Virus record (IMG/VR): IMGVR_UViG_3300047392_000113
Span: 119,152 to 170,832 of that record
Origin: a virus
Taxonomy: Duplodnaviria > Heunggongvirae > Uroviricota > Caudoviricetes
Direction: 5' to 3' (one strand)
DNA length: 51,681 nt
In this document: positions 9,599-24,811 of the stretch, piece after piece
How the letters are laid out: the number at the start of each line of letters is the position of its first letter
Position numbering within the stretch: the stretch's first letter is position 1
Notes under the pieces: model-generated
The model's database searches: none
Seen by the model: the letters and a program-made list of their open reading frames with translations, nothing else
Told to the model about the DNA's origin: nothing
Program-made: the position numbers and the translations under genes

Positions 9599-9661
9599 GA
9601 CCCCACCTTGTGTGGGGTTTTACATTTAAGGCTTGACATTTACTTGACTTTAGGGCATAAT
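9599..9661 (+). promoter_or_regulatory. Stem-loop plus sigma70 promoter (PeSL-like cassette)
   Basis: CCCCAC-cttgt-GTGGGG hairpin; TTGACA(9633)-N17-CATAAT(9656). Confidence 0.85.
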
Positions 9662-10866: not shown

Positions 10867-11007
10867 ATGAAACCTAAAAACCTTGTTGCCAAGGATTTAA
10901 GGACTCCAAAGTACCGCATGCGTGTGGTGGAGTCTAAGGTTCATTACACACGCAAAACTAAGCACAAAGGACATGCAAATGGAATACCCGCACAAGCTGG
11001 TTATTGA
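10867..11007 (+). CDS. ArfA-like basic peptide (46 aa), not in ORF track
   Basis: MKPKNLVAKDLRTPKYRMRVVESKVHYTRKTKHKG...; resembles the ArfA core (L..P.FR.RV...KG.Y.RK.KH) but lacks GKGS. Confidence 0.5.
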   Translation: MKPKNLVAKDLRTPKYRMRVVESKVHYTRKTKHKGHANGIPAQAGY

Positions 11008-16377: not shown

Positions 16378-17249
16378 AGAAAATTATTGCTTTGATGATG
16401 TTGGTGTGTACAAATTTGTTTGCAGCGGAAACTATTAAAATCTATTCTCCATATAGCCCATCACACTCAGCGACTCCAGCTATGTTTAGAATCATTGATG
16501 AGGCAAACAAAGAACAGAGTATCTACAAGTTCATTCTCGAATTTCGTCCAGGTGGCAATCAGATTATTGCTCTTAAGTCTATGGACGAAAATAGTCTCGC
16601 AATCATTGCGCCAGCATTCGTGGAAAATGTAGCAGCAGGACAGATTAAAGAGTCTGACTATATTCCTGTTCATGCTCTTGGTGATGCATGCTGGGCTGTT
16701 ATCACAAATGGACCAATCAATGCTAACAAAGAGTTGACTGTTGGTGGTGTTGGGTTTGGTAATGCTGCACATCTAACTGCTCTTGCACTCGGAGAGAAAT
16801 ATAAGTTTGATGTCAAGTACATTGTGTTCAAGTCAAATAACGATGCGTTAGTTAATATGGCTGGCAACAACGGAATCTTTATGGTGATTGATCGTTATGA
16901 ATCTTACGAATCAATGAAGACAAAGAATACAAACTTGCAAGCATTCGCAGCTAGTTGTCCTGATAGACTACCGCAAGCACCCAATCTAAAGACTTTAAAA
17001 GAACTTGGAATTCAAGCACCATACGTCTTTAATATTACGATGGCTCATGTGTCTATGAGTACAGCAAGGCGTGAAAGTATCAAGCAAATTCTAAACAATG
17101 CTCAGAACAAAGTCGGTGCTGAAGAAATTTACAAAGTTTCTGGTATGAGGATTCCCAAAGAATCTGCTGAAGTGTTCTATAACAAATCAACTAAACTTGT
17201 AAAGACTCTACAAGAAAAGTACAGATCTGAGATTGAGAAATCAAAATGA
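16374..17249 (+). CDS. Bug/TctC-like periplasmic substrate-binding protein
   Basis: Signal peptide; RPGGNQIIA, GGVGFGNAAHL, LPQAPNLKTLKELG. Confidence 0.65.
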   Translation: MKKIIALMMLVCTNLFAAETIKIYSPYSPSHSATPAMFRIIDEANKEQSIYKFILEFRPGGNQIIALKSMDENSLAIIAPAFVENVAAGQIKESDYIPVHALGDACWAVITNGPINANKELTVGGVGFGNAAHLTALALGEKYKFDVKYIVFKSNNDALVNMAGNNGIFMVIDRYESYESMKTKNTNLQAFAASCPDRLPQAPNLKTLKELGIQAPYVFNITMAHVSMSTARRESIKQILNNAQNKVGAEEIYKVSGMRIPKESAEVFYNKSTKLVKTLQEKYRSEIEKSK

Positions 17250-17788
17250 TTAAACATGAGTGGTGGGCGACTCCAGTTTGGGAAGTTAAGACTGGATTTG
17301 ATACTAAATTTAACAATGAGTTGTTAAAAGAGATCGCATCAATCAAACCAACTGACGGATCATTCAACGTCTGGGATTATCGTCTACCAAGAATCATTGA
17401 ACTTGAGAGTTACATCTTAAAAACTGTCAACGATTCTATGGAAGAGTACCTACCCGAATATATGCAGAGAAAGTTATCTCTGTCAAGGGGATGGGTCAAC
17501 CGAAATCCTCCAGGAAATGCTCTTGCAGTACATAACCATGGTGGTGCTCTACTGGCTTGTACTTACTATCTTGTCACTCCTCCATATTGCGGAGATCTAC
17601 TATTGGTAGACCCACGTGGTGGTGCCAACTGGGGGTGGGAATATGAAGATGGAATCATTGGAGTGAAACATAAAAGAATCCGACCACTAGTTGGTAATCT
17701 TGTTTTCTTTCCAGCTTGCTTACTACACTCGGTCGAGGCTAATAAGTCTTATACTGCACGTGTAAGTCTTTCCACTAATGTCTATTGA
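17246..17788 (+). CDS. 2OG-Fe(II) oxygenase (TIGR02466-like)
   Basis: WVN...HNH, LLLVDPR, FFPACLLHSV...RVSLS. Confidence 0.85.
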   Translation: MIKHEWWATPVWEVKTGFDTKFNNELLKEIASIKPTDGSFNVWDYRLPRIIELESYILKTVNDSMEEYLPEYMQRKLSLSRGWVNRNPPGNALAVHNHGGALLACTYYLVTPPYCGDLLLVDPRGGANWGWEYEDGIIGVKHKRIRPLVGNLVFFPACLLHSVEANKSYTARVSLSTNVY

Positions 17789-17801
17789 CTAAATATACCA
17801 T

Positions 17802-18206
17802 ATGGCATACTCAACTAAAGTTATCGATCACTACGAGAACCCTCGTAATGTAGGATCCTTCGGCAAAGACGAAGAGGGAGTAGGCACAGGTATGGTTGGA
17901 GCACCAGCTTGCGGTGACGTGATGAAGCTACAAATTAAGGTAGATGATAATGGTATTATTAGAGATGCTCGTTTCAAGACATATGGATGCGGTTCAGCAA
18001 TCGCAAGTTCCAGTCTCGTCACTGAGATGGTTAAGGGTATGCACATTGATGATGCTAATAAACTTAAGAACTCTCAAATCGCTGAAGAACTAGCACTCCC
18101 ACCAGTTAAGATCCACTGTTCAATTCTAGCAGAAGATGCTATCAAGGCAGCTGTAAATGATTACCGTAACCGACACAGCAAAACAGAAAATCAAGCAGCT
18201 GCTTGA
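17802..18206 (+). CDS. iscU: Fe-S scaffold protein IscU
   Basis: GAPACGDVM, FKTYGCGSAIASSS, LPPVKIHCS; CTAAATA at 17789-17795. Confidence 0.95.
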   Translation: MAYSTKVIDHYENPRNVGSFGKDEEGVGTGMVGAPACGDVMKLQIKVDDNGIIRDARFKTYGCGSAIASSSLVTEMVKGMHIDDANKLKNSQIAEELALPPVKIHCSILAEDAIKAAVNDYRNRHSKTENQAAA

Positions 18207-18483
18207 GAAACGTGGTAAGGGAGTCGGCATTCGGTTAGGTGTTAAAACTACAGGATGCAGTGGCTTAGCTTATACGCTAGAATATGTCGATGAACACAAA
18301 ATAGAAATTGGTGTTACCAACTACGCTCAACCAGAATTCTCTGTGCTTGTAGACGCTAAAGCAGATGCCTACTTAAATGGTATGACAGTTGATTGGGTTC
18401 GCAATGGACTCAATGAAGGATTTGATTTTCAAAACCCAAACGAACGTGACCGATGTGGTTGCGGAGAAAGTTTCAGAGTATGA
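18157..18483 (+). CDS. iscA: A-type Fe-S carrier IscA
   Basis: GCSGLAY, NPN...CGCGESF. Confidence 0.92.
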
Positions 18484-18785
18484 TTACAGTAACAGAAAAC
18501 GCTACAACTAAAATCGCTGATTTGTTAGCAGAGAACCAAGAAAACTTCTTGCGCATGTCAGTGCAAGGTGGTGGTTGTTCTGGTTTCACCTATGCATTTA
18601 TGTTTGATGATGTAGCCAACGAAGATGACTTTACTCTTGATAAAGTTGTTGTTGATGCAATGAGCATGCAATACTTGCAAGGTGCGACTGTAGACTACAT
18701 TGAAGATCTGATGGGGTCGTCATTCAGGGTGCAAAACCCAAACGCTGAAACAACTTGTGGATGTGGAAGCTCGTTCTCTGTATAA
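18480..18785 (+). CDS. erpA: A-type Fe-S carrier, ErpA-like
   Basis: [32 protein letters not shown]. Confidence 0.85.
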
Positions 18786-18802
18786 AATATATTTTAAAAT
18801 AC

Positions 18803-18927
18803 TTGACTTTTTCCCACTTTTGGGGCATAATTCCTTATAAATAGATTACTAGCTGCAGGAAAAGACCCTACTGAATGTAAGGTTACTGCAGAAAGTACTT
18901 GACGAAAACAACTTTTTAGGACATAAT
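18803..18927 (+). promoter_or_regulatory. Tandem promoters: two sigma70 sites, one late TATAAATA, one stem-loop
   Basis: TTGACT(18803)-N17-CATAAT; TATAAATA 18836; hairpin 18864-18884; TTGACG(18899)-N17-CATAAT(18922). Confidence 0.85.
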
Positions 18928-18937
18928 TCTTTCTACT

Positions 18938-19054
18938 ATGAAAAACGTTTGTATATCCAGCATGCATAAACAGCTACCGTTAGTAAATAACGGCTGGACA
19001 AGCACACGCCCATCATTTGCGATTGAATATGATACTGGGGGTTTTGGCAAGTAA
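18938..19054 (+). CDS. Putative leader peptide (38 aa)
   Basis: MKNVCISSMHKQLPLVNNGWTSTRPSFAIEYDTGGFGK*; near-leaderless; 3' end pairs with the terminator arm. Confidence 0.55.
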   Translation: MKNVCISSMHKQLPLVNNGWTSTRPSFAIEYDTGGFGK

Positions 19055-19083
19055 GACTTAGAATACCATTAAGGTTACTTACC

Positions 19084-19120
19084 AAAACCCTCTGAGACGA
19101 AAGTCCAGAGGGTTTTTTGT
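19084..19120 (+). terminator. Intrinsic terminator overlapping an alternative antiterminator
   Basis: AAAACCCTCTG...GAAA...CAGAGGGTTTTTT. Confidence 0.85.
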
Positions 19121-19158
19121 TTATACTCTACCATCGTGTGGGGTTATTTTTGAAGGTG

Positions 19159-19187
19159 TTGACTTCCGTAGTTTTTTACTGTAGAAT
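19159..19187 (+). promoter_or_regulatory. sigma70 promoter for the tRNA array
   Basis: TTGACT-N17-TAGAAT. Confidence 0.8.
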
Positions 19188-19294
19188 TCAATCCCTTAGT
19201 TAGTCGAAAGACTTACTGAAAGATCTTTAAAAATTTGCGTACCATTTTAATGAGTCACTAGCGAAGGTTCGCTGGTAGCTAGTGACTCTTTTGT

Positions 19295-19368
19295 TCCCGA
19301 GTAGTGTAGTGGTAACACACCAGACTTTGACTCTGTTATTGTAGGTTCGATTCCTACCTCGGGTGCCA
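19295..19368 (+). tRNA. tRNA-Gln(UUG)
   Basis: Cloverleaf, loop CT-TTG-AC, GTTCGA, CCA. Confidence 0.92.
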
Positions 19369-19450
19369 AACAAAAGCACATTATGTAACCTGAAGTGCGG
19401 TCACAGGACATCGAAAGGTGTGGTAGCCGTGATAGTGTGCCTTTGTTTGG
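19366..19450 (+). ncRNA. Unknown structured RNA closed by a stem starting at the tRNA CCA
   Basis: CCAAACAAA/TTTGTTTGG and GCACATTA/TAGTGTGC stems; CCTG/CAGG and ACATC-GAAA-GGTGT hairpins; possible pseudoknot. Confidence 0.55.
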
Positions 19451-19474
19451 TAACAATGTTCAAGGAGAACGACA

Positions 19475-19495
19475 ATGAAACGTGCTAAACGTTAG
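19475..19495 (+). CDS. Minigene MKRAKR (TAG stop)
   Basis: AAGGAG RBS, then ATG AAA CGT GCT AAA CGT TAG and a CTCAGA/TCTGAG hairpin. Confidence 0.5.
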   Translation: MKRAKR

Positions 19496-19555
19496 TGTCG
19501 CTCAGATCCCCCGTATGGTCTGAGTTGGCACGTAAAATCAAAACAATACGTACAA

Positions 19556-19631
19556 CCACTCGTGGCGTTAATGGTAGCGTACATGACTCTTAATCATCGA
19601 GGTCTGAGTTCGAATCTCAGCGAGTGGACCA
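19556..19631 (+). tRNA. tRNA-Lys(CUU)
   Basis: Loop CT-CTT-AA, CCA. Confidence 0.92.
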
Positions 19632-19634
19632 TAT

Positions 19635-19709
19635 GGGGGTATAACTTAACGGCTAAAGTAGCTGGCTTTTAACCAGTTAATCAGAGTTCGATTCTCTGTG
19701 CCCCTACCA
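19635..19709 (+). tRNA. tRNA-Lys(UUU)
   Basis: Loop CT-TTT-AA, CCA. Confidence 0.92.
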
Positions 19710-19791
19710 TATGAAAACACATTCTAAAACATAAAGATTTAGGATCATCAAGGGATACTTTCAGCACATCCCCGAGTGTGTTTCTATATGG
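19707..19791 (+). ncRNA. Structured RNA closed by a CCA-anchored stem, containing a mini CAGCA element
   Basis: CCATAT...ACACATTC / GAGTGTGT...ATATGG; internal GGGAT-ACTTT-CAGCA-C-ATCCC. Confidence 0.5.
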
Positions 19792-19796
19792 TTTAT

Positions 19797-19871
19797 GGAG
19801 TTGTTAGTTTAGTGGCAAAACCACGGGTTGTGATTCCGTTATCACGAGTTCGATTCTCGTACGACTCCCCA
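19797..19871 (+). tRNA. tRNA-His(GUG)
   Basis: Loop TT-GTG-AT; encoded G-1 and C73; CCA. Confidence 0.92.
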
Positions 19872-19884
19872 AAGAAAATTGTAT

Positions 19885-19960
19885 GCCGAAGTAGCTCATC
19901 AGGTAGAGCAGCAGACTGAAAATCTGTGTGTGGTTGGTTCGAGTCCAATCTTCGGTACCA
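19885..19960 (+). tRNA. tRNA-Phe(GAA)
   Basis: Loop CT-GAA-AA, CCA. Confidence 0.93.
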
Positions 19961-19967
19961 AAATTAT

Positions 19968-20041
19968 TCCCCGTTAGCTCAATGGTAGAGCACTCGACTG
20001 ATAATCGAGCGACAGTGGATCGTAACCACTACAGGGAACCA
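19968..20041 (+). tRNA. tRNA-Ile(GAU)
   Basis: Loop CT-GAT-AA; variant T-loop ATCGTAA; CCA. Confidence 0.88.
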
Positions 20042-20046
20042 AATGT

Positions 20047-20120
20047 ATCTCGCTGGTGTAATGGCAGCATGTCAGTCTCCAAAACTGTTGGTCGGGGTTC
20101 GAGTCCCTGGCGGGATGCCA
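20047..20120 (+). tRNA. tRNA-Trp(CCA)
   Basis: Loop CT-CCA-AA, CCA end. Confidence 0.92.
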
Positions 20121-20125
20121 AATAT

Positions 20126-20200
20126 GGTGATGTAGCATAATGGTAGTGCACCTCCTTCATACGGAGCAAAGTGGTAGTTCGACTCTACTCATCACCACCA
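20126..20200 (+). tRNA. tRNA-Met/Ile2(CAU)
   Basis: Loop TT-CAT-AC; Met versus lysidine-Ile not resolvable by eye. Confidence 0.85.
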
Positions 20201-20206
20201 AGTTTT

Positions 20207-20268
20207 AGGATTCTTTCAGCAAATTTAAAATTCAAACTTATATCTTGAAAAGAAAGCGAATCCTGTTG
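20207..20268 (+). ncRNA. CAGCAA/GUUG family RNA, copy A
   Basis: AGGATTC..CAGCAA..TTCAA/TTGAA hairpin..GAATCCT-GTTG. Confidence 0.7.
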
Positions 20269-20274
20269 TTTTAT

Positions 20275-20349
20275 GTCGCATTAGACTTCTGGTGAGGTCA
20301 TCACCCTTTCAAGGTGACCAGACGGGATCGTAACCCGTATGCGACTCCA
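20275..20349 (+). tRNA. tRNA-Glu(UUC)
   Basis: Loop CT-TTC-AA; T-loop ATCGTAA; CCA. Confidence 0.88.
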
Positions 20350-20354
20350 ATTAT

Positions 20355-20428
20355 CTCTGTGTAGCGTAGTGGTAGCGTTCGTGTTTTGGGGACATGAGGC
20401 GAAGGTTCGATTCCTTCTACGGAGACCA
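20355..20428 (+). tRNA. tRNA-Pro(UGG)
   Basis: Loop TT-TGG-GG, C1-G72, CCA. Confidence 0.88.
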
Positions 20429-20436
20429 AGTTTTAT

Positions 20437-20511
20437 GGGGGCAGTGCTGGGGCACGGCAGTGGCTTGCAACTTCTGCGACTAGATGGATTCGATTTCCAC
20501 GGCTTCCACCA
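20437..20511 (+). tRNA. Atypical tRNA-Ala(UGC)-like gene
   Basis: G3-U70-type acceptor, loop CT-TGC-AA, poor D and anticodon stems, CCA. Confidence 0.55.
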
Positions 20512-20518
20512 ATTTTAT

Positions 20519-20597
20519 TCCGAGAAACCCAAGCAAGGTGCAGGGGCTTGACTGTTAATCAATGGTTAGATGAGTTCGATTCTCATACTCGGAGCCA
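20519..20597 (+). tRNA. tRNA-Asn(GUU)
   Basis: Loop CT-GTT-AA, CCA. Confidence 0.85.
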
Positions 20598-20604
20598 ATT
20601 TTAT

Positions 20605-20680
20605 ACCGTAGAGTTCACCTGATGGTGATAACCGACTGTCTATCGGAGTGTGGCGGGTTTGATTCCCGTCTACGGTGCCA
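20605..20680 (+). tRNA. tRNA-Asp(GUC)
   Basis: Loop CT-GTC-TA; T-loop TTTGATT; CCA. Confidence 0.82.
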
Positions 20681-20683
20681 AGT

Positions 20684-20851
20684 TTTGTAAGTGTAGATGT
20701 TGAGAAAGCAAAGCCTCGAAAACTTTGTGAGCTAACGGTTCGAGTCCGACAACATGGCAGCTAGTAAGTAACGACTATTACTACGTACCTCTAACCCTAA
20801 CGTATACTGGGCGAAATGGTTGCGAATGAGCGAGGCGCAACTACTTACAAA
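20684..20851 (+). ncRNA. Unknown RNA with an internal tRNA-like T-arm
   Basis: Closing TTTGTAAGT/ACTTACAAA; ATGTTG/CAACAT stem enclosing CGG-TTCGAGT-CCG. Confidence 0.55.
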
Positions 20852-20900
20852 TTCAATCTCTCCCTGACATGCGGAGTACAATGTGATAAGTTGTATGTCA

Positions 20901-21012
20901 TCTTAATGAAGTGTATTGCGTGACGCCACGGTCGTAAGAGCCAGCTGGAACGAGAAGACAAAAAGCCTAAGCATGCAGATGGGCTCGCATGGCGCAGTAT
21001 ATTTCATTAAGA
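20901..21012 (+). ncRNA. Unknown RNA with a 20-bp closing stem
   Basis: TCTTAATGAAGTGTATTGCG pairs with CGCAGTATATTTCATTAAGA using three G-U pairs. Confidence 0.6.
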
Positions 21013-21016
21013 TTTT

Positions 21017-21145
21017 GGAGACATGATGTAATGGTAGCATAGCATAGCAAAAAATCAATTCTGTCTGTAGAATTGTTTCCGCAATACTAAAGCTCTAACT
21101 CTGTAAAAGTTCTTGTACGTGGTTCGAATCCCGTTGTCTCCACCA
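21017..21145 (+). tRNA. Oversized (129-nt) tRNA-like gene with an insertion; Tyr-type loop
   Basis: GGAGACA/TGTCTCC acceptor plus ACCA, D-arm, GGTTCGAATCC T-loop, AACT-CTGTAAA-AGTT; about 50 extra nt after the D-arm. Confidence 0.6.
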
Positions 21146-21150
21146 GTTTT

Positions 21151-21216
21151 AGGAAGGGTTCAGCAAATAAAAAAGCTAAACTTTTTGGTTGTCTAGCGAC
21201 AAAAACCTTCCTGTTG
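21151..21216 (+). ncRNA. CAGCAA/GUUG family RNA, copy B
   Basis: AGGAAGGGTT-CAGCAA..GCTA/TAGC hairpin..AACCTTCCT-GTTG. Confidence 0.7.
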
Positions 21217-21224
21217 TATTTTAT

Positions 21225-21299
21225 GCGCCCTTAGTAAAATGAATATTACACAACGCTACGAACGTTGAAGTGGGAGTTTGATTCTCTCAGGGCGTACCA
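21225..21299 (+). tRNA. tRNA-Arg(ACG)
   Basis: Loop CT-ACG-AA, CCA. Confidence 0.88.
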
Positions 21300-21305
21300 A
21301 GTTAT

Positions 21306-21391
21306 GGATGTGATAGAACAATGGCGTTCTAGTGGGCTGTAACCCCATGGTCTTTCGAGATAGGTAGGTTCGATCCCTACCACATCCACCA
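21306..21391 (+). tRNA. tRNA-Tyr(GUA)
   Basis: Loop CT-GTA-AC, long variable arm, CCA. Confidence 0.88.
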
Positions 21392-21397
21392 AGTTTT

Positions 21398-21507
21398 AGG
21401 TTAGGTTCTGCAAAAATAAAATTAGCTGGTTCGATTCCAGCATTATCCACCAAAACTCGAAAGAGACTCGGATGATGTGCCACGGTGGCAATCAAACTAA
21501 CCTGTTG
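21398..21507 (+). ncRNA. CAGCAA/GUUG family RNA, copy C, with a circularly permuted tRNA-like module (YrlA-like)
   Basis: AGGTTAG/CTAACCT-GTTG; CTGCAA variant; T-arm, then ATTATCC/GGATGAT stem, then TGCCAC/GTGGCA hairpin. Confidence 0.7.
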
Positions 21508-21513
21508 TTTAAT

Positions 21514-21603
21514 GGAAGCGTGTCCGAGCGGTTTAAGGAACTAGTCTAGAAAACTAGCGAGTCAGCAATGGCTCCGTGAGTTCGAATCTCACCGCTTCCA
21601 CCA
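21514..21603 (+). tRNA. tRNA-Ser(AGA)
   Basis: CTAGT-CTAGAAA-ACTAG; long variable arm; A73; CCA. Confidence 0.85.
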
Positions 21604-21608
21604 AATAT

Positions 21609-21700
21609 GGAGAGTAATGCAGCGGGGTTGGTCCTGCGACGTGCCTTGAAAACACGGTTCTCAGAAATGGGATGGGGTTCGACTCCTCTGCTCTCCGCCA
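21609..21700 (+). tRNA. tRNA-Ser(UGA)
   Basis: Loop CT-TGA-AA, long variable arm, G73, CCA. Confidence 0.85.
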
Positions 21701-21704
21701 GAAT

Positions 21705-21830
21705 TTAGAGATAGACGATGTGATGAGTCCCTTGTGCGCTAGTGCCCTATTCTTGAGCATGACACACCAGTAGCAACACAAGGTAGTTTAAACTCTCACA
21801 ATCGAGACAACTCCGACGAGTCCTTGAGAA
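21705..21830 (+). ncRNA. Unknown structured intergenic RNA
   Basis: TTAGAGA/TCTCTAA closing stem; CCTTGTG/CACAAGG internal stem. Confidence 0.4.
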
Positions 21831-21878
21831 AGATAGTTGGAACTCTCTAAACCTTTTTATTATTTTATGGAGAAACTT

Positions 21879-22445
21879 ATGCCAAGCGTATTTTTAACAA
21901 GTGACACACACTTTGGTCACGCTGGTGTGTGTAAGTTCTTGCGTGATGACGGTTCTAAATTGAGACCATGGGACAATCCAGAAGAAATGGACGAAGCCAT
22001 GATCAAGATGTGGAATGAAACTGTAAAGCCAACTGACAAGGTCTACCACTTAGGTGATGTAGTGATCAACCGTAAGGCTTTATCTACTTTACATCGGTTA
22101 AACGGTGATAAAGTTTTGATTAAAGGTAACCACGATATCTTTAGGTTGGAAGACTATACTCCGTTCTTCCGAGATATCCGCAGTTACCATGTGATGAATG
22201 GAGTGTTGTTGAGTCACATTCCTGTTCATCCTCAGCAATTGTATCGTTTTGGTTGTAACATCCATGGACACTTGCACAGCAACCGTGTTATGGTTACTGA
22301 CAAGTATGGTGTTACAAAAGTTGACCCACAGTACTACTCTGTATGCGTTGAGCAAACAGACTTCAGACCCATCTTGTTTGAGGACGTCTTGAAGAAGATT
22401 CAAGAGCAGGGTGGTACTGTGGGATTCAAAAACGGTAATCGTTAA
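21879..22445 (+). CDS. Calcineurin-like metallophosphoesterase
   Basis: SDTHFGH, HLGD, GNHD, LSHIP, HGHLH. Confidence 0.92.
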   Translation: MPSVFLTSDTHFGHAGVCKFLRDDGSKLRPWDNPEEMDEAMIKMWNETVKPTDKVYHLGDVVINRKALSTLHRLNGDKVLIKGNHDIFRLEDYTPFFRDIRSYHVMNGVLLSHIPVHPQQLYRFGCNIHGHLHSNRVMVTDKYGVTKVDPQYYSVCVEQTDFRPILFEDVLKKIQEQGGTVGFKNGNR

Positions 22446-22446
22446 T

Positions 22447-22537
22447 AGTGGGTTGGCAGAGTGGCGATTGCAGCAGTTTGCTAAACTGTAGACTCGAGAA
22501 ATCGGGTCCAAGGGTTCGAGTCCCTTACCCACTGCCA
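22447..22537 (+). tRNA. tRNA-Ser(GCU)
   Basis: Loop TT-GCT-AA, long variable arm, CCA. Confidence 0.92.
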
Positions 22538-22641
22538 GTGTTGTGTCGACGACTAATCTCGGTGCTTCCGTTCTCCCGAGTTAAAATAGTTGATTGTGGT
22601 TCTCCCCTGACGAGATAAAACTTTCAACAAGACGGAGCCAT

Positions 22642-22718
22642 GCGGATGTGATGGAATTGGTATACGTGCTTGACTCAAAATCAAGATTCTGCGAGTTCGA
22701 GTCTCGCCATCCGCACCA
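22642..22718 (+). tRNA. tRNA-Leu(CAA), short variable arm
   Basis: Loop CT-CAA-AA, A73, CCA. Confidence 0.9.
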
Positions 22719-22723
22719 GATTT

Positions 22724-22798
22724 GGGCATTTAGCATAATGGTAGTGCCGTCAACTCATAATTGATACGGTTCGAGTTCGAATCTCGGAGTGCCCACCA
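22724..22798 (+). tRNA. tRNA-Met/Ile2(CAU)
   Basis: Loop CT-CAT-AA, CCA. Confidence 0.88.
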
Positions 22799-22827
22799 TT
22801 GACTTGCAACGCTAATTGATGTATAAT
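22799..22827 (+). promoter_or_regulatory. sigma70 promoter
   Basis: TTGACT-N17-TATAAT. Confidence 0.85.
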
Positions 22828-22836
22828 AAAGGTTAT

Positions 22837-22913
22837 GCGGATGTGATGGAATTGGTATACGTATCGGACTTAAAATCCGAGTTTTGTGGGTTCGAGTCCC
22901 ACCATCCGCACCA
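22837..22913 (+). tRNA. tRNA-Leu(UAA), short variable arm
   Basis: Loop CT-TAA-AA, CCA. Confidence 0.9.
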
Positions 22914-22917
22914 GATT

Positions 22918-22993
22918 TCTCGCTTTCGTATAATGGATAATACAGTAGGCTTCTACCCTACGAATATGGGTTCGATTCCTGTAGGCGAGACCA
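22918..22993 (+). tRNA. tRNA-Arg(UCU)
   Basis: Loop CT-TCT-AC, CCA. Confidence 0.9.
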
Positions 22994-23572
22994 TTATTTT
23001 CTAATTCTTTTAATTGATGAAATTGGTATATGATGATAAGAAACATTTTCTTCAGAGAAAATTTGTGCGTCAGGATGAATTGATTTACAATTTTTATCTG
23101 GAGTACACTCACCGAATCTAATACAGATTTTCTGATTACAAGAGTTAATACACTCTATGAAGTTTCCACTATAATCTAGTATGTTTGCTTCAGTAAAGAT
23201 AGAATGTTCGATCTGCCAATTAACTCTTAGAGCATTGACGGTGTCAACCCTAGATTGTATTAATACTCGCTGGTTGTTTTCGTCAAAATCAAATAGTTGA
23301 TTGTTGTTGGCAAAAATGTCGTACCAATATTGTTTGACTTGTTCAGCAGTTTTAAAAAATTTGTGATGATGTATTTGTCTGCTAGATCCGTTTTCCAAAC
23401 GGTCTTGAGTTTTTGAGATGTTGTGAACACCTTTGTAGAAAAAATTTGTATACTTCAAATCAAATTCTTTCTGGAATTTTTCGAATCCTTCTAGATTATT
23501 TTTGTAATCATCGCTGTCTTCGAAAAATAAATTTTCTGTTTTGTTAACTCTAATAATCTCAAGAATGTACAT
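22994..23572 (-). CDS. AT-rich hypothetical protein with a Cys-rich C-terminus, antisense to the tRNA array
   Basis: 192-aa ORF fills the gap between tRNA-Arg and tRNA-Cys; GAGGA RBS on the minus strand. Confidence 0.7.
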   Translation of the reverse strand: MYILEIIRVNKTENLFFEDSDDYKNNLEGFEKFQKEFDLKYTNFFYKGVHNISKTQDRLENGSSRQIHHHKFFKTAEQVKQYWYDIFANNNQLFDFDENNQRVLIQSRVDTVNALRVNWQIEHSIFTEANILDYSGNFIECINSCNQKICIRFGECTPDKNCKSIHPDAQIFSEENVSYHHIPISSIKRIRK

Positions 23573-23588
23573 TCTTTTTCCTCTTTGT

Positions 23589-23664
23589 GTAGGCGTGTCC
23601 CGAATGGCTAGGGAAGTGATTGCAAACCACTTGTATGCAGGTTCGAGTCCTGTCGCCTACTCCA
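23589..23664 (+). tRNA. tRNA-Cys(GCA)
   Basis: Loop TT-GCA-AA, U73, CCA. Confidence 0.88.
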
Positions 23665-23676
23665 GTAAAACTTTAG

Positions 23677-23740
23677 TAACCTACAAAAGTTGAGGGTTAC
23701 TAAAAAACCTGTTGACATGTATTCATATTTAGTGTATAAT
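23677..23740 (+). promoter_or_regulatory. Stem-loop plus consensus sigma70 promoter
   Basis: AGTAACC/GGTTACT hairpin; TTGACA(23712)-N17-TATAAT(23735). Confidence 0.9.
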
Positions 23741-23775
23741 ATAGTCTCATTAGTTGATTATCTTAGTTCTAAAAT

Positions 23776-23849
23776 CCTCTCTAAGTCATTACGTGAAGTC
23801 GGATGCCTGAGGTGAATTTAGAGGTTGGCAGTCATCCACAAAACTGCCA
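23776..23849 (+). ncRNA. Two-hairpin RNA with a possible loop-loop pairing
   Basis: CCTCT..AGAGG stem with GGATG in the loop; TGGCAGT/ACTGCCA stem with CATCC in the loop. Confidence 0.45.
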
Positions 23850-23853
23850 CTTT

Positions 23854-23928
23854 ACTCGGTTCGTCTATCGGTTAGGACATCAGGTTTTCAACCTGAGAAG
23901 ACGAGTTCGACTCTCGTACCGAGTACCA
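23854..23928 (+). tRNA. tRNA-Glu(UUC)
   Basis: Loop TT-TTC-AA, CCA. Confidence 0.9.
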
Positions 23929-24130
23929 TTAGTAGTATCGTTTTGGAAAAATGCAGTGTTCACCTGCATAATGCACTGTCAATGTAATGGATTCTAGATT
24001 GAAGTTATACACAGTTGCGCCAAAGGAAATCAAGGTAAACAGTGGCCACTGTCCTTGTATAAGGTTTGGGCGATAAAAGCAAACGACAATAGGGTTATTG
24101 TTGTCCATAACGAAACGATACTACTAATGG
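23926..24130 (+). ncRNA. About 205-nt RNA closed by a perfect 18-bp stem starting at the tRNA CCA
   Basis: CCATTAGTAGTATCGTTT (23926) / AAACGATACTACTAATGG (24113-24130). Confidence 0.65.
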
Positions 24131-24137
24131 AAATTTT

Positions 24138-24230
24138 GGAGGCATTGTAGATATGGCGTGTTCTGCAGCGGACTGTAAATCCGTTCCCTCGTGGTAAACA
24201 ATGCTGGTTCGACTCCAGCTGCCTCCACCA
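24138..24230 (+). tRNA. tRNA-Tyr(GUA), enlarged D and variable arms
   Basis: Loop CT-GTA-AA, CCA. Confidence 0.8.
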
Positions 24231-24236
24231 AAATTT

Positions 24237-24311
24237 GGCTCGTTCGTATAATGGTTATTACGTCGGATTGTCTATCCGATCACGGGAGTTCGATCCTCCC
24301 ACGAGTCGCCA
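24237..24311 (+). tRNA. tRNA-Asp(GUC)
   Basis: Loop TT-GTC-TA, G73, CCA. Confidence 0.9.
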
Positions 24312-24323
24312 TAAATAAAAAAC

Positions 24324-24397
24324 GCCTCGGTAGTTTAATGGTAGAACGGCATCCTTACACGGTGCATACGGGAGTTCGATTCTCCAACGAGGTACCA
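24324..24397 (+). tRNA. tRNA-Val(UAC)
   Basis: Loop CT-TAC-AC, CCA. Confidence 0.9.
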
Positions 24398-24402
24398 GTT
24401 AT

Positions 24403-24479
24403 TGCGGGTTAGGGAAATGGTTATCCCGTCAGTCTCATAAGCTGAAGGTAGTTGGTTCGATTCCAGCACTCCGCAACCA
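24403..24479 (+). tRNA. tRNA-Met(CAU), possibly initiator-like
   Basis: Loop CT-CAT-AA; TGCGG acceptor; lacks the triple G-C anticodon stem. Confidence 0.8.
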
Positions 24480-24484
24480 GTTTT

Positions 24485-24551
24485 AGGATATTTGCAGCAA
24501 ACAAAAAAGCATTCAACTTGTAATTGAAAAACGCAAAAAGATATCCTGTTG
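24485..24551 (+). ncRNA. CAGCAA/GUUG family RNA, copy F, with an anticodon-stem-loop mimic
   Basis: AGGATAT..CAGCAA..TTCAA-CTTGTAA-TTGAA..ATATCCT-GTTG. Confidence 0.7.
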
Positions 24552-24557
24552 TATTTC

Positions 24558-24631
24558 GCCCTATTAGTATAATGGCATTACACCTGTTTTGTAATCAGGT
24601 TACGGCAGTTCGATTCTGTCATGGGGCACCA
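24558..24631 (+). tRNA. tRNA-Thr(UGU)
   Basis: Loop TT-TGT-AA, CCA. Confidence 0.9.
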
Positions 24632-24638
24632 AATTTAT

Positions 24639-24715
<77 letters not shown>

Positions 24716-24728
24716 TAAGTAGTATTAT

Positions 24729-24805
24729 GCGGATGTGATGGAATTGGTATACGTGTTGGTCTTAGAAGCCAAATTTTGTGAGTTCGAGTCTCACCATCCG
24801 CACCA
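24729..24805 (+). tRNA. tRNA-Leu(UAG), short variable arm
   Basis: Loop CT-TAG-AA, CCA. Confidence 0.9.
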
Positions 24806-24811
24806 TTTTAT

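Follow-up and report, generated by a model that had tools for sequence, protein, structure and literature searches.

The source phage is T4-like, as judged by its Gp23 match (E = 1.4e-141), and the window (the whole stretch of DNA analysed here, 51,681 nt) carries an array of 32 clustered tRNAs headed by a tRNA-Gln at 19295. Directly upstream of this array lies a module of less than 350 nt with consensus sigma-70 promoters, a short open reading frame (mini-ORF), several stem-loops and an intrinsic terminator, made up of the following features.

18803–18831, plus strand: promoter P1, sigma-70-type (TTGACT-17-CATAAT), upstream of P2
18853–18891, plus strand: stem-loop between P1 and P2 (inner stem 18865–18883, outer CTGCAG/CTGCAG), the stem-loop half of a PeSL-like unit
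18899–18927, plus strand: promoter P2 (TTGACG-17-CATAAT), expected to give a leaderless mRNA
18938–19054, plus strand: mini-ORF of 38 codons, rich in rare codons, with synonymous codon variation at invariant residues and in-frame indels
18976–18994, plus strand: small ORF-internal hairpin of 7 pairs at codons L-P-L..G-W, a candidate RNA polymerase pause/synchronising hairpin
19039–19054, plus strand: 5' arm of hairpin 1 (antiterminator candidate), comprising the last codons G-F-G-K and the stop codon
19075–19090, plus strand: 3' arm of hairpin 1, whose last three bases, CCC (19088–19090), double as the foot of the terminator stem
19088–19118, plus strand: intrinsic terminator (stem 19088–19112 with bulged A19095 and a GAAA loop; T6 at 19113–19118)
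19125–19187, plus strand: PeSL-like unit, a stem-loop at 19125–19144 (loop CATCGT) followed by promoter P3 (TTGACT-17-TAGAAT, 19159–19187)
19295–19368, plus strand: tRNA-Gln(UUG), first gene of the array and the proposed regulated target

We recovered the promoter at 18899, the near-leaderless 38-codon ORF, an intrinsic terminator overlapping the 3' pairing partner of the ORF end and the separate downstream promoter at 19159, all of which had been described in the original prediction. Promoter P1, the rare-codon richness of the ORF, selection at the peptide level and a second covarying hairpin had not been mentioned there. Since the −10 box of P2 ends 10 nt before the ATG (6–7 nt in most relatives), the leader would be at most a few nucleotides long. 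Folding of the leader region exceeded that of shuffled sequences (z = −4.4; 0/200 shuffles equally good). Among assembled contigs from public RNA runs, one metatranscriptome had a 177-nt contig of a close relative that covered 18867–19040 at depth 3; it may be DNA carry-over, shows neither strand, transcript ends nor readthrough, and leaves the terminator uncovered.

The module is present in 29 non-redundant relatives (viral contigs), and a whole-library profile search returned 35 protein clusters at 50% identity, all of them from uncultured aquatic T4-like phages. The original prediction had proposed conservation of the ORF and antiterminator as a check; both are kept in 29/29 relatives, and the ORF and hairpin 1 also in four more distant ones. 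We examined 33 loci for tRNA linkage, one of which (L059) lies on a contig that stops within tRNA-Gln. The first tRNA lay directly downstream of the module in 32/33 loci, 50–540 nt past the terminator, and was tRNA-Gln in 30 of them, tRNA-Arg in L036 and tRNA-Trp in L060. Genes upstream of the module vary by locus, with Isc genes in some and unrelated genes in most. The peptide had no Pfam hits at E ≤ 10 and no hits in PHROGs, and an Rfam scan of 18000–27000 gave for the leader only a sub-threshold match (22 bits) between the terminator and an unrelated 5'UTR family, which we rejected as spurious. DNA searches of the GenBank phage collection matched tRNA genes only, and no cultured carrier is known, because tblastn of the peptide against 50,697 GenBank phage records found no match. 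A homologue search with a 45-aa family member gave five hits, each named 'hypothetical'. The module is thus previously undescribed, with no Pfam, PHROG or Rfam entry and no counterpart in the cultured phages searched. Gene callers mostly overlook the mini-ORF.

We then considered whether the mini-ORF is translated. Across the family it spans 36–46 codons with the motif K-[HQ]-L-P-[LQ]..G-W...R..F-(0-8 aa)-A-I-E-[YS]-D-[ST]-[GE]-G-F-G-K-stop, in which 11 residues are invariant together with synonymous variation in their codons (Leu CTA/TTA/CTC/CTT, Pro CCG/CCA, Glu GAA/GAG, Arg CGC/CGT/CGA, Ser AGT/AGC/TCA). Serine codons switch between AGY and TCN among relatives, and indels occur in frame only. 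A leaderless start, with the −10 box ending 6–10 nt before the ATG, was found in 27/29 relatives and an SD site in the rest; L035, L043 and L061, which represent three lineages, have an AAGGA SD instead of the leaderless start. The same leaderless layout recurs elsewhere in the genome at no fewer than four long genes (115–345 aa) and at two shorter ORFs. Judged by its substitution patterns, the mini-ORF is a real translated gene. A minus-strand ORF ending in EGFGK was discarded as merely the mirror image of the inverted repeat.

By the same comparative signal, the peptide sequence itself is under selection. It consists of two conserved blocks with a variable linker of 0–8 aa between them, and some members carry C-terminal extensions (GFGKQM, GFGKRS, GFGKKK). 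This arrangement resembles a microprotein more than a leader peptide and would be awkward for an arrest peptide of fixed geometry. Because a pure occupancy sensor needs no amino-acid conservation, the peptide may have a function of its own; it probably does more than mark ribosome passage, and may be a nascent-chain modulator of ribosome dwell time or a trans-acting microprotein. An AlphaFold2 model built on a 26-sequence alignment had a pLDDT of 59 and no secondary structure. As the original prediction had said of the peptide, there is no run of one amino acid, and the mini-ORF family has no regulatory codon run for a single amino acid. Codon adaptation of all 29 ORFs falls in the lowest 6% for this genome (0.53 vs 0.73 ± 0.09), which fits a slowly translated sensor, and conserved rare codons are scattered along the ORF (ATA, TCC/TCG, CCG, CGC, GCG, GGG). 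We rejected the idea that the conserved peptide residues reflect the tRNAs at the start of the array: of the 10 amino acids served by the first tRNA block, 8 are among the 12 conserved residue types (hypergeometric P ~0.09), and tRNA order varies between relatives.

The last codons of the ORF form one arm of hairpin 1. In the window, 19039–19054 pairs 15/16 with 19075–19090, as originally predicted, with one C.A mismatch; across the family the hairpin has 16–20 bp and a conserved central A.C or C.A mismatch. In 27 sequences, 97.5% of cells over 15 pairs were paired, vs 65–67% when the partner was slid by one column. The 3' arm CCAAAACCC is invariant though non-coding, while the loop of hairpin 1 varies freely, and the synonymous sites of the GGT and TTT codons in the 5' arm are invariant in 29/29 relatives while other Gly codons of the mini-ORF vary. 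Covarying stems had been another check proposed with the original prediction. Compensatory changes do occur in hairpin 1, with a TAG stop paired with C and a TAA stop with U (6 sequences), and with Gly to Glu (GGN to GAA) in L058 accompanied by CC to TT on the 3' arm; the terminator stem covaries as well. However, the 27-sequence analysis found a two-sided change at one hairpin 1 pair only, and covariation support for hairpin 1 is thin because most pairs are invariant.

The second, ORF-internal hairpin was found in ~26/29 relatives; two of its pairs covary via synonymous sites (A-U/G-C/G-U; C-G/U-A/U-G), and it does not pair with the 5' arm of the antiterminator candidate. RNAalifold on the family gave no conserved anti-antiterminator pairing with the 5' arm of hairpin 1. 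A trp-like 1:2 anti-antiterminator, formed by the Arg-Pro codons with the G-run, was likewise tried and rejected, as the P/S/T variation at that site shows no co-variation with G/E in the 5' arm and RNAalifold finds no such helix.

Every member has a terminator stem (−12 to −16 kcal/mol) followed by a U-tract, and across relatives the stop codon and the last base of the T-run stay 54–64 nt apart. At −16.6 kcal/mol, the window's terminator is among the strongest predicted in the 170.8-kb genome. Hairpin 1 and the terminator have in common CCC(C) (19088–19090 in the window) and an A-tract (AAAA), an overlap of 3–4 core G-C pairs plus the A-tract. These shared pairs account for ~10 of the terminator's 13 kcal/mol, the family mean energy being −13.3 kcal/mol with them and −3.4 kcal/mol without; in the window, −6.9 kcal/mol is left without CCC:GGG. 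The original prediction had taken the two structures to be mutually exclusive, and in this strict form the claim did not hold. Only the CCC and the AAAA tract are shared, and in the free full-length RNA of the window both the MFE and the centroid contain both hairpins, differing by 2–3 bp of branch migration. The two states are near-isoenergetic in relatives (mean difference 0.5 kcal/mol, range −3.4 to +3.3), and in the window the balance lies 3 kcal/mol on the side of the complete terminator. Branch migration over 3 bp is rapid, so the kinetic block may be weak.

We evaluated the predicted switch by withholding the U-tract, which mimics the termination complex, and masking nucleotides −15 to +12 around the stop codon as a ribosome footprint. 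The probability of the full terminator across the family had a median of 0.07 (mean 0.15) in free RNA vs 0.97 with the stop masked. In the window it was 0.58 in free RNA vs 0.98 with the footprint at the stop, and this 0.58 falls inside the range of the genome's other terminators in the same test (0.47–0.98). The window's own copy thus looks like a weak switch in these folding calculations, and the competition looks strong in most relatives. The thermodynamics therefore support the direction originally claimed, in which a ribosome at the stop would cause termination, for the family, but the predicted effect is weak in the window.

Transcription can also begin on either side of this switch. Transcripts from P1 would place the mini-ORF behind a ~100-nt leader with no SD, and a promoter lies 66–150 nt before the ATG (mostly 87–108 nt) in 21/29 relatives. 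Downstream, a consensus promoter follows the terminator in 20/29 relatives, the window included, so that the array there is independent of readthrough; P3 can feed the window's tRNA array anyway. In the other 9/29 we found no promoter-like site in the 50–53 nt that separate the terminator from tRNA-Gln, so that this tRNA must be transcribed through the terminator. Predicted switch strength did not correlate with lack of a downstream promoter (Mann-Whitney p = 0.69). A conserved TTTAAAAATTTGCGTACCA element was considered as a phage-specific (late-type) promoter of tRNA-Gln and rejected, as the motif occurs once in the genome and thus does not recur as a promoter class would.

P2 and P3 are each preceded by a unit of a repeated class. 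A PeSL is a stem-loop followed within ~10–20 nt by a sigma-70-type early promoter, repeated around the genome of a T4-like phage, and such composite elements flank small ORFs in T4-like phages (PMC4122927). We found ~10 PeSL-type units in this T4-like genome (ACCC(C/T)AC-loop-GT(G/A)GGGTT, ~10–14 nt, TTGAC-17-TATAAT), those before P2 and P3 included. The stem between P1 and P2 covaries among relatives (ACCCTGC/GCAAGGT, ACCTTCA/TGAAGGT).

Our preferred reading, to which we give slightly less than an even chance, is that the module is a ribosome-dependent transcription attenuator heading the phage tRNA array, built on a conserved and mostly leaderless mini-gene. Early sigma-70 promoters would initiate transcription at or just upstream of the AUG, and a ribosome would load at the 5' end and translate the 36–46 codons. 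The last five or six codons, usually with the stop codon, would serve as the 5' arm of hairpin 1, and the 3' arm would extend into the CCC(C) at the foot of the strong terminator, whose T-run ends 54–64 nt past the stop. If the end of the ORF were uncovered, with the ribosome not started or stalled upstream, hairpin 1 would hold the shared C's; the terminator would lose most of its stability and its U-tract contact, and RNA polymerase would read on through tRNA-Gln and the genes behind it. If a ribosome instead occupied the stop codon, hairpin 1 would be blocked, the full terminator would fold and an RNA of ~180 nt would result. The conservation, coding signature, geometry, thermodynamic competition and tRNA-array linkage are results of the analysis above; that termination would respond to translation and thereby tune tRNA supply is what we infer. 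As a translation-stress sensor, a physiological role that we likewise infer, the module would boost the supply of tRNAs.

The locus has a translated short ORF upstream of a same-strand tRNA array and an intrinsic terminator between them, and lacks a regulatory codon run. In favour of the attenuator we count the coding signature, the tRNA linkage, the conservation of hairpin 1, the competition between structures, the 9/29 relatives without a downstream promoter, the 54–64 nt spacing from stop to T-run, the covarying ORF-internal hairpin and the low codon adaptation. Against it stand the overlap of only 3–4 pairs, the 0.58 of the window, the downstream promoters in 20/29 relatives, the lack of a switch-promoter correlation (p = 0.69), the thin covariation, the microprotein-like conservation, the lack of regulatory codons and of an anti-antiterminator, and the SD-less P1 transcripts. 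The observation in the original prediction is thus confirmed in part and its attenuator interpretation supported in part; that the mini-gene and hairpin may tie tRNA transcription to ribosome performance is plausible but unproven. A broader version, which we regard as possible but doubtful, is that a clade of aquatic T4-like phages gates its tRNA array through a leaderless, rare-codon-rich leader peptide. Completed translation would lead to termination, and faltering translation (through tRNA shortage or cleavage, host shut-off or inhibitors) to the antiterminator and more tRNA, with the conserved peptide as a nascent-chain or trans-acting second layer.

A serious rival, though less likely than the attenuator, is that the locus is an independent early gene for a microprotein, set in a PeSL-type promoter/terminator cassette that leaves tRNA expression unregulated, the ~40-aa peptide being the sole relevant product. 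Hairpin 1 and the terminator would then form a composite 3' terminus that makes the short mRNA more stable or modulates how translation ends, and that insulates the tRNA array from upstream transcription. In its favour, selection at the amino-acid level is strong on two motif blocks with a variable linker, the unit owns a promoter and a strong terminator, and the stem-loop and promoter units around it (~10 in the genome) are of a kind that flanks small ORFs in T4-like phages (PMC4122927). Transcription restarts after the terminator in 20/29 relatives, and the window's terminator is barely affected by hairpin 1. However, this explanation does not account for why hairpin 1 always reaches the terminator base, why most relatives have a terminator with almost no strength once the shared pairs are taken away, why tRNA-Gln lacks its own promoter in 9 relatives, or why the module keeps its place before the first tRNA despite changing upstream genes; in addition, the peptide has no predicted fold (pLDDT 59) and no family match.

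We consider it improbable that the element has a dual function, acting as an attenuator while the released peptide, the ~180-nt terminated RNA or both act in trans, for example on a host tRNA- or translation-related target. Selection at the peptide and RNA levels within the same 117 nt would suit it, and the Sinorhizobium trp attenuator, reported to yield a trans-acting leader peptide (peTrpL) and a trans-acting sRNA (rnTrpL), offers a precedent (PMC7298713, PMC6614838). Against this, the trans target is conjectural, the peptide model is disordered and every weakness of the attenuator reading is inherited. Very improbable is a non-coding structured leader or processing signal, with the ORF untranslated and hairpin 1 serving tRNA precursors from P1 or P2 as a stability element or as a processing site of the RNase III type: the long imperfect stem with its conserved central A.C or C.A mismatch, the lack of an SD in most members and the position of the region as an internal segment of P1 transcripts would fit, but the codon-level evidence of translation is strong (synonymous switching, Ser AGY/TCN, in-frame indels only), an SD is acquired where the leaderless promoter is absent, and Rfam gives only the spurious 22-bit terminator hit.

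Discussion of phage tRNA arrays usually centres on codon usage or on evasion of tRNA-cleaving defences. If the attenuator reading is true, the module would let translation capacity feed back on tRNA supply, in a minimal two-hairpin design on a leaderless mRNA, and, as far as we know and in the library searched, no leader-peptide attenuator of tRNA genes would have been reported before it. If it fails, there is still a conserved microprotein gene at the head of a tRNA array, which would point to a tRNA-related function of the peptide.

In amino-acid operon attenuators of the trp, his and pheA type (cf. PMC3082878), the antiterminator is lost when a ribosome sits on the stop codon of the leader. 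The module resembles these in its order (short translated ORF, intrinsic terminator, downstream genes), in an alternative hairpin that has bases in common with the terminator, in a stop-to-terminator distance of ~60 nt and in a candidate pause hairpin within the leader. Unlike them, it belongs to a phage, its proposed targets are tRNA genes rather than biosynthetic genes, it has no cognate codon run, and the 5' arm of its antiterminator lies within the end of the ORF and not after it. The overlap of only 3–4 core pairs, the leaderless mRNA and the conserved peptide are further differences. It also has no 1:2 anti-antiterminator, so that, when the leader is not translated, the prediction is readthrough and not super-attenuation.

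Leaderless mRNAs are common in mycobacterial hosts. There, leaderless polycysteine sORF attenuators are reported to sense cysteine via stretches of Cys codons and to control protein-coding operons (bioRxiv 10.1101/834739). They share with the module a leaderless short ORF as first cistron whose translation sets downstream expression, as we propose here, and differ from it in the codon run, which our module lacks, in its tRNA targets and in the proposed competition with an intrinsic terminator.

Leaders of the TnaC type work through arrest at the stop codon. Leader ORFs of the ermC, vmlR and yxjB type sense translation inhibition (e.g. PMC6851288). Both types resemble the module in having a conserved leader peptide, in that ribosome position would decide between terminator and antiterminator, and in an output that would report the state of translation and not the level of one amino acid. 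Unlike the module, those leaders induce resistance or catabolic genes and not tRNAs. Arrest here is only conjectural, and the variable linker and the extensions GFGKQM, GFGKRS and GFGKKK argue against a single fixed arrest geometry.

Sinorhizobium trpL has no sequence relationship to the module, for which a trans function is conjectural, but it sets a precedent, as both the peptide and the RNA of that attenuator are under selection for further functions (PMC7298713, PMC6614838). The PeSLs of T4-like phages are described as shuffling and regulatory cassettes (PMC4122927, PMC2839356), and the module resembles them in the stem-loop and sigma-70 promoter units that flank the mini-ORF and recur ~10 times in this T4-like genome. 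Unlike PeSLs, it adds a hairpin in the coding region that competes with the terminator and a conserved peptide tied to the tRNA array.

The record of which the window forms the terminal 51.7 kb spans 170,832 bp, has terminal repeats and carries the gene for a major capsid protein of T4 type (Pfam Gp23, E = 1.4e-141). Because of this match, and because its closest cultured relatives by capsid protein are cyanophages, the Methylophilales phage Melnitz and Pelagibacter phage HTVC008M (~69% identity), we assign the phage on sequence grounds to the uncultured aquatic "far-T4" phages. The module ahead of its tRNA array consists of the following features.

18803–18831: P1, sigma-70-type promoter
18899–18927: P2, sigma-70-type promoter (TTGACG-17-CATAAT)
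18938–19054: mini-ORF, 38 codons
19039–19054: 5′ arm of hairpin 1, 16 nt, pairing at 15/16 positions with 19075–19090
19088–19112: terminator stem, followed by T6
19159–19187: P3, sigma-70-type promoter
19295: tRNA-Gln, first of 32 clustered tRNAs

P2, the ORF, the arm pairing, the terminator, P3 and tRNA-Gln all lie where the original prediction had placed them; P1 and a stem-loop between P1 and P2 went unmentioned there. The terminator ranks among the top two or three of the whole genome in predicted strength. Upstream of the module, a run of auxiliary genes (17246–18785) found in only some relatives appears, by eye from the translations, to encode a 2OG-Fe(II)-oxygenase-like protein, a scaffold resembling IscU and a pair of diverged IscA-like paralogs (~37% mutual identity, tblastn).

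To assemble the mini-ORF family, we scanned viral contigs using the IscA-like protein encoded next to it and a 20-nt pattern, and then using the first eight peptides as an alignment; this last scan yielded 35 loci, or 29 without redundant ones. Among 1.84 billion proteins, a profile search returned 35 clusters at 50% identity, small proteins throughout. The aligned peptides read K-[HQ]-L-P-[LQ]..G-W...R..F, a linker of 0–8 residues, and A-I-E-[YS]-D-[ST]-[GE]-G-F-G-K-stop. Peptide conservation, which the original prediction had proposed as a check, is evident across the family together with synonymous codon switching: the invariant residues are encoded by CTA, TTA, CTC and CTT (Leu), CCG and CCA (Pro), GAA and GAG (Glu), CGC, CGT and CGA (Arg), and AGT, AGC and TCA (Ser), and length differences are in-frame without exception. 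As judged from this alignment, the mini-ORF is a real gene. Its peptide had no relative in Pfam, PHROG or among named proteins, no predicted fold, and no copy in cultured phages. Two protein-library entries, P0013 (146 aa) and P0014 (153 aa), have the mini-peptide at their N-terminus, the reading frame running on beyond GFGK through a W; they are evidently annotation artefacts in which the gene caller took the TGA stop as Trp, not fusions. On one related viral contig, a decayed copy (L004:3330–3480) has a GTG start, an Arg to His change and a C-terminus altered from GFGK to VL; hairpin 1 and the terminator are deleted, and a small ORF led by a Shine-Dalgarno site and then tRNAs follow.

In 27/29 relatives, 6–10 nt (mostly 6–7 nt) separate the end of the −10 box from the ATG, and the mRNA would therefore be leaderless. 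Three lineages lack this promoter, and in them an AAGGA Shine-Dalgarno site takes its place. Elsewhere in the same genome, at least four long ORFs (115–345 aa) and two shorter ones (72 and 46 aa) begin 6–8 nt past a consensus −10 box (genome positions 5300, 6544, 12325, 13057, 23571 and 130018, the last being window position 10867), so leaderless early mRNAs appear to be routine in this phage. To our knowledge, this is unusual among T4-like phages. The codon adaptation index is 0.52 for the window ORF and 0.53 for the family, versus 0.73 ± 0.09 for 38-codon stretches taken from long genes, and all family members fall in the lowest 6%. Conserved codons include CGC, GCG, CCG, GGG, ATA and TCC/TCG, each making up 5–9% of its amino acid's usage in long genes. 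RNA pairings account for part of this rare-codon content, and the remaining rare codons may slow the ribosome. One freshwater metatranscriptome contained a 177-nt contig that covers 18867–19040 as a close variant, carries the 3-nt CAA insertion of L023 (a close relative of the window copy) and begins 5′ of P2; if RNA, it would stem from P1 or farther upstream.

Hairpin 1 is retained in every member, with 97.5% of 405 cells paired; shifting the partner by a single column lowers this to 65–67%. No member departs from CCAAAACCC in the non-coding 3′ arm, and the loop is free in sequence and length. Every member keeps the GGT and TTT codons of the coding arm; Gly is encoded elsewhere in the ORF by GGC, GGA and GGT. 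Most members also preserve an A.C or C.A mismatch at the centre of the hairpin. The original prediction had proposed covarying stems in relatives as a check, and the terminator stem does covary clearly (G-C/U-A, A-U/G-C); hairpin 1 is conserved, but its two-sided change is limited. It comprises the stop codon (TAG pairs with C, TAA with U) and a Gly to Glu change in locus L058 (GGN to GAA) matched by CC to TT in the opposite arm. In loci L060 and L061 the hairpin extends into two extra codons. A further hairpin within the ORF (18976–18994, codons L-P-L..G-W) covaries at synonymous positions, the Pro third base and the initial base of the Leu codon that follows, which indicates RNA-level selection on synonymous sites.

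The two structures share a CCC plus an A-tract, or CCCC in a subgroup whose 5′ arm offers a fourth G. The mean terminator stem energy of −13.3 kcal/mol falls to −3.4 without the shared pairs (about zero in the CCCC subgroup), and the remaining stem would sit 3–4 nt off the U-tract. Between the two assignments of the shared bases the mean difference is 0.5 kcal/mol (−3.4 to +3.3). We modelled the moment of decision by withholding the U-tract, as still in the hybrid, and masking a ribosome footprint of −15 to +12 around the stop. The median probability that the terminator forms to its base was 0.07 in free RNA versus 0.97 with the footprint masked; since these are equilibrium estimates and 3-bp branch migration is fast, the true effect on termination could be smaller. 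Thirteen other terminators of this genome gave 0.47–0.98 in the identical test. For the window copy the values were 0.58 and 0.98, so its own switch is weak in this model; L023 and L024, both closely related to it, give a similar picture. The proposed mutual exclusivity is only partial, and in the complete free RNA both hairpins are predicted to form. Throughout the relatives, the last T of the run lies 54–64 nt past the stop codon, similar to the classical trp leader spacing.

The module precedes the first tRNA of an array in 32/33 loci examined (the window, 28 relatives and four further loci): tRNA-Gln(UUG) in 30, Arg in L036 and Trp in L060. ARAGORN reports no tRNA in the remaining locus, L059, because its contig ends within tRNA-Gln. 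Isc genes lie 5′ of the module in the window and a few relatives, but most loci have unrelated genes there, so the module is tied to the start of the array rather than to the gene upstream. In nine of the 29 relatives, the 50–53 nt from the terminator to tRNA-Gln contain nothing promoter-like; their first tRNAs would therefore be made only by transcription through the terminator. The other 20, window included, have one to three consensus promoters there, each with a stem-loop of the ACCC(C/T)AC-loop-GT(G/A)GGGTTA type 5′ of it. Predicted switch strength did not differ between relatives with and without a downstream promoter. Genome-wide, about ten composite units combine an ACCC(C/T)AC-loop-GT(G/A)GGGTT stem-loop, ~10–14 nt and TTGAC-17-TATAAT (in the window, near 9614, 19125–19187, 23693–23740, 48847, 49575 and 51395), matching PeSLs, the composite stem-loop/early-promoter motifs of T4-like phages (PMC4122927). 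A separate 20–25-nt element, CTTTAAAAATTTGCGTACCA (19221–19247), recurs nearly letter for letter in distant relatives including L028, L029, L048 and L057, always 4–50 nt ahead of tRNA-Gln, whether or not a promoter lies upstream. The genome has no second copy of it, which rules out a repeated promoter type, and it may be a 5′-leader processing signal.

A ribosome-dependent attenuator is the best-supported account of the module, and we favour it tentatively. A ribosome arriving at the stop codon would remove hairpin 1 and let the terminator fire; were the ribosome absent or held farther upstream, hairpin 1 would stay and readthrough into the tRNAs would be favoured. This direction of control agrees with the original prediction, and translation stress would then yield more phage tRNA. 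The main rival, which we consider possible if somewhat doubtful, is a simple microprotein gene within a PeSL cassette, with the double hairpin as its 3′ end; two conserved peptide blocks joined by a variable linker and the many promoters downstream of the terminator speak for it. A dual-function version, compatible with both the attenuator and the microprotein, seems improbable, and the codon evidence makes a purely non-coding account unlikely.

In a full-text literature search for tRNA operons controlled by a leader-peptide attenuator, the sole match was a pheL paper, and no such report turned up. Mycobacteria are known to have leaderless short-ORF attenuators (10.1101/834739), and in Sinorhizobium both the peptide and the RNA of attenuators are known to act in trans (PMC7298713, PMC6614838). 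The proposed working of the module is like that of trp/his-type leader-peptide attenuators. Unlike these, it has no regulatory-codon run and no anti-antiterminator, and its two structures overlap little. It differs further in its tRNA-gene target, phage setting, leaderless start and conserved peptide.
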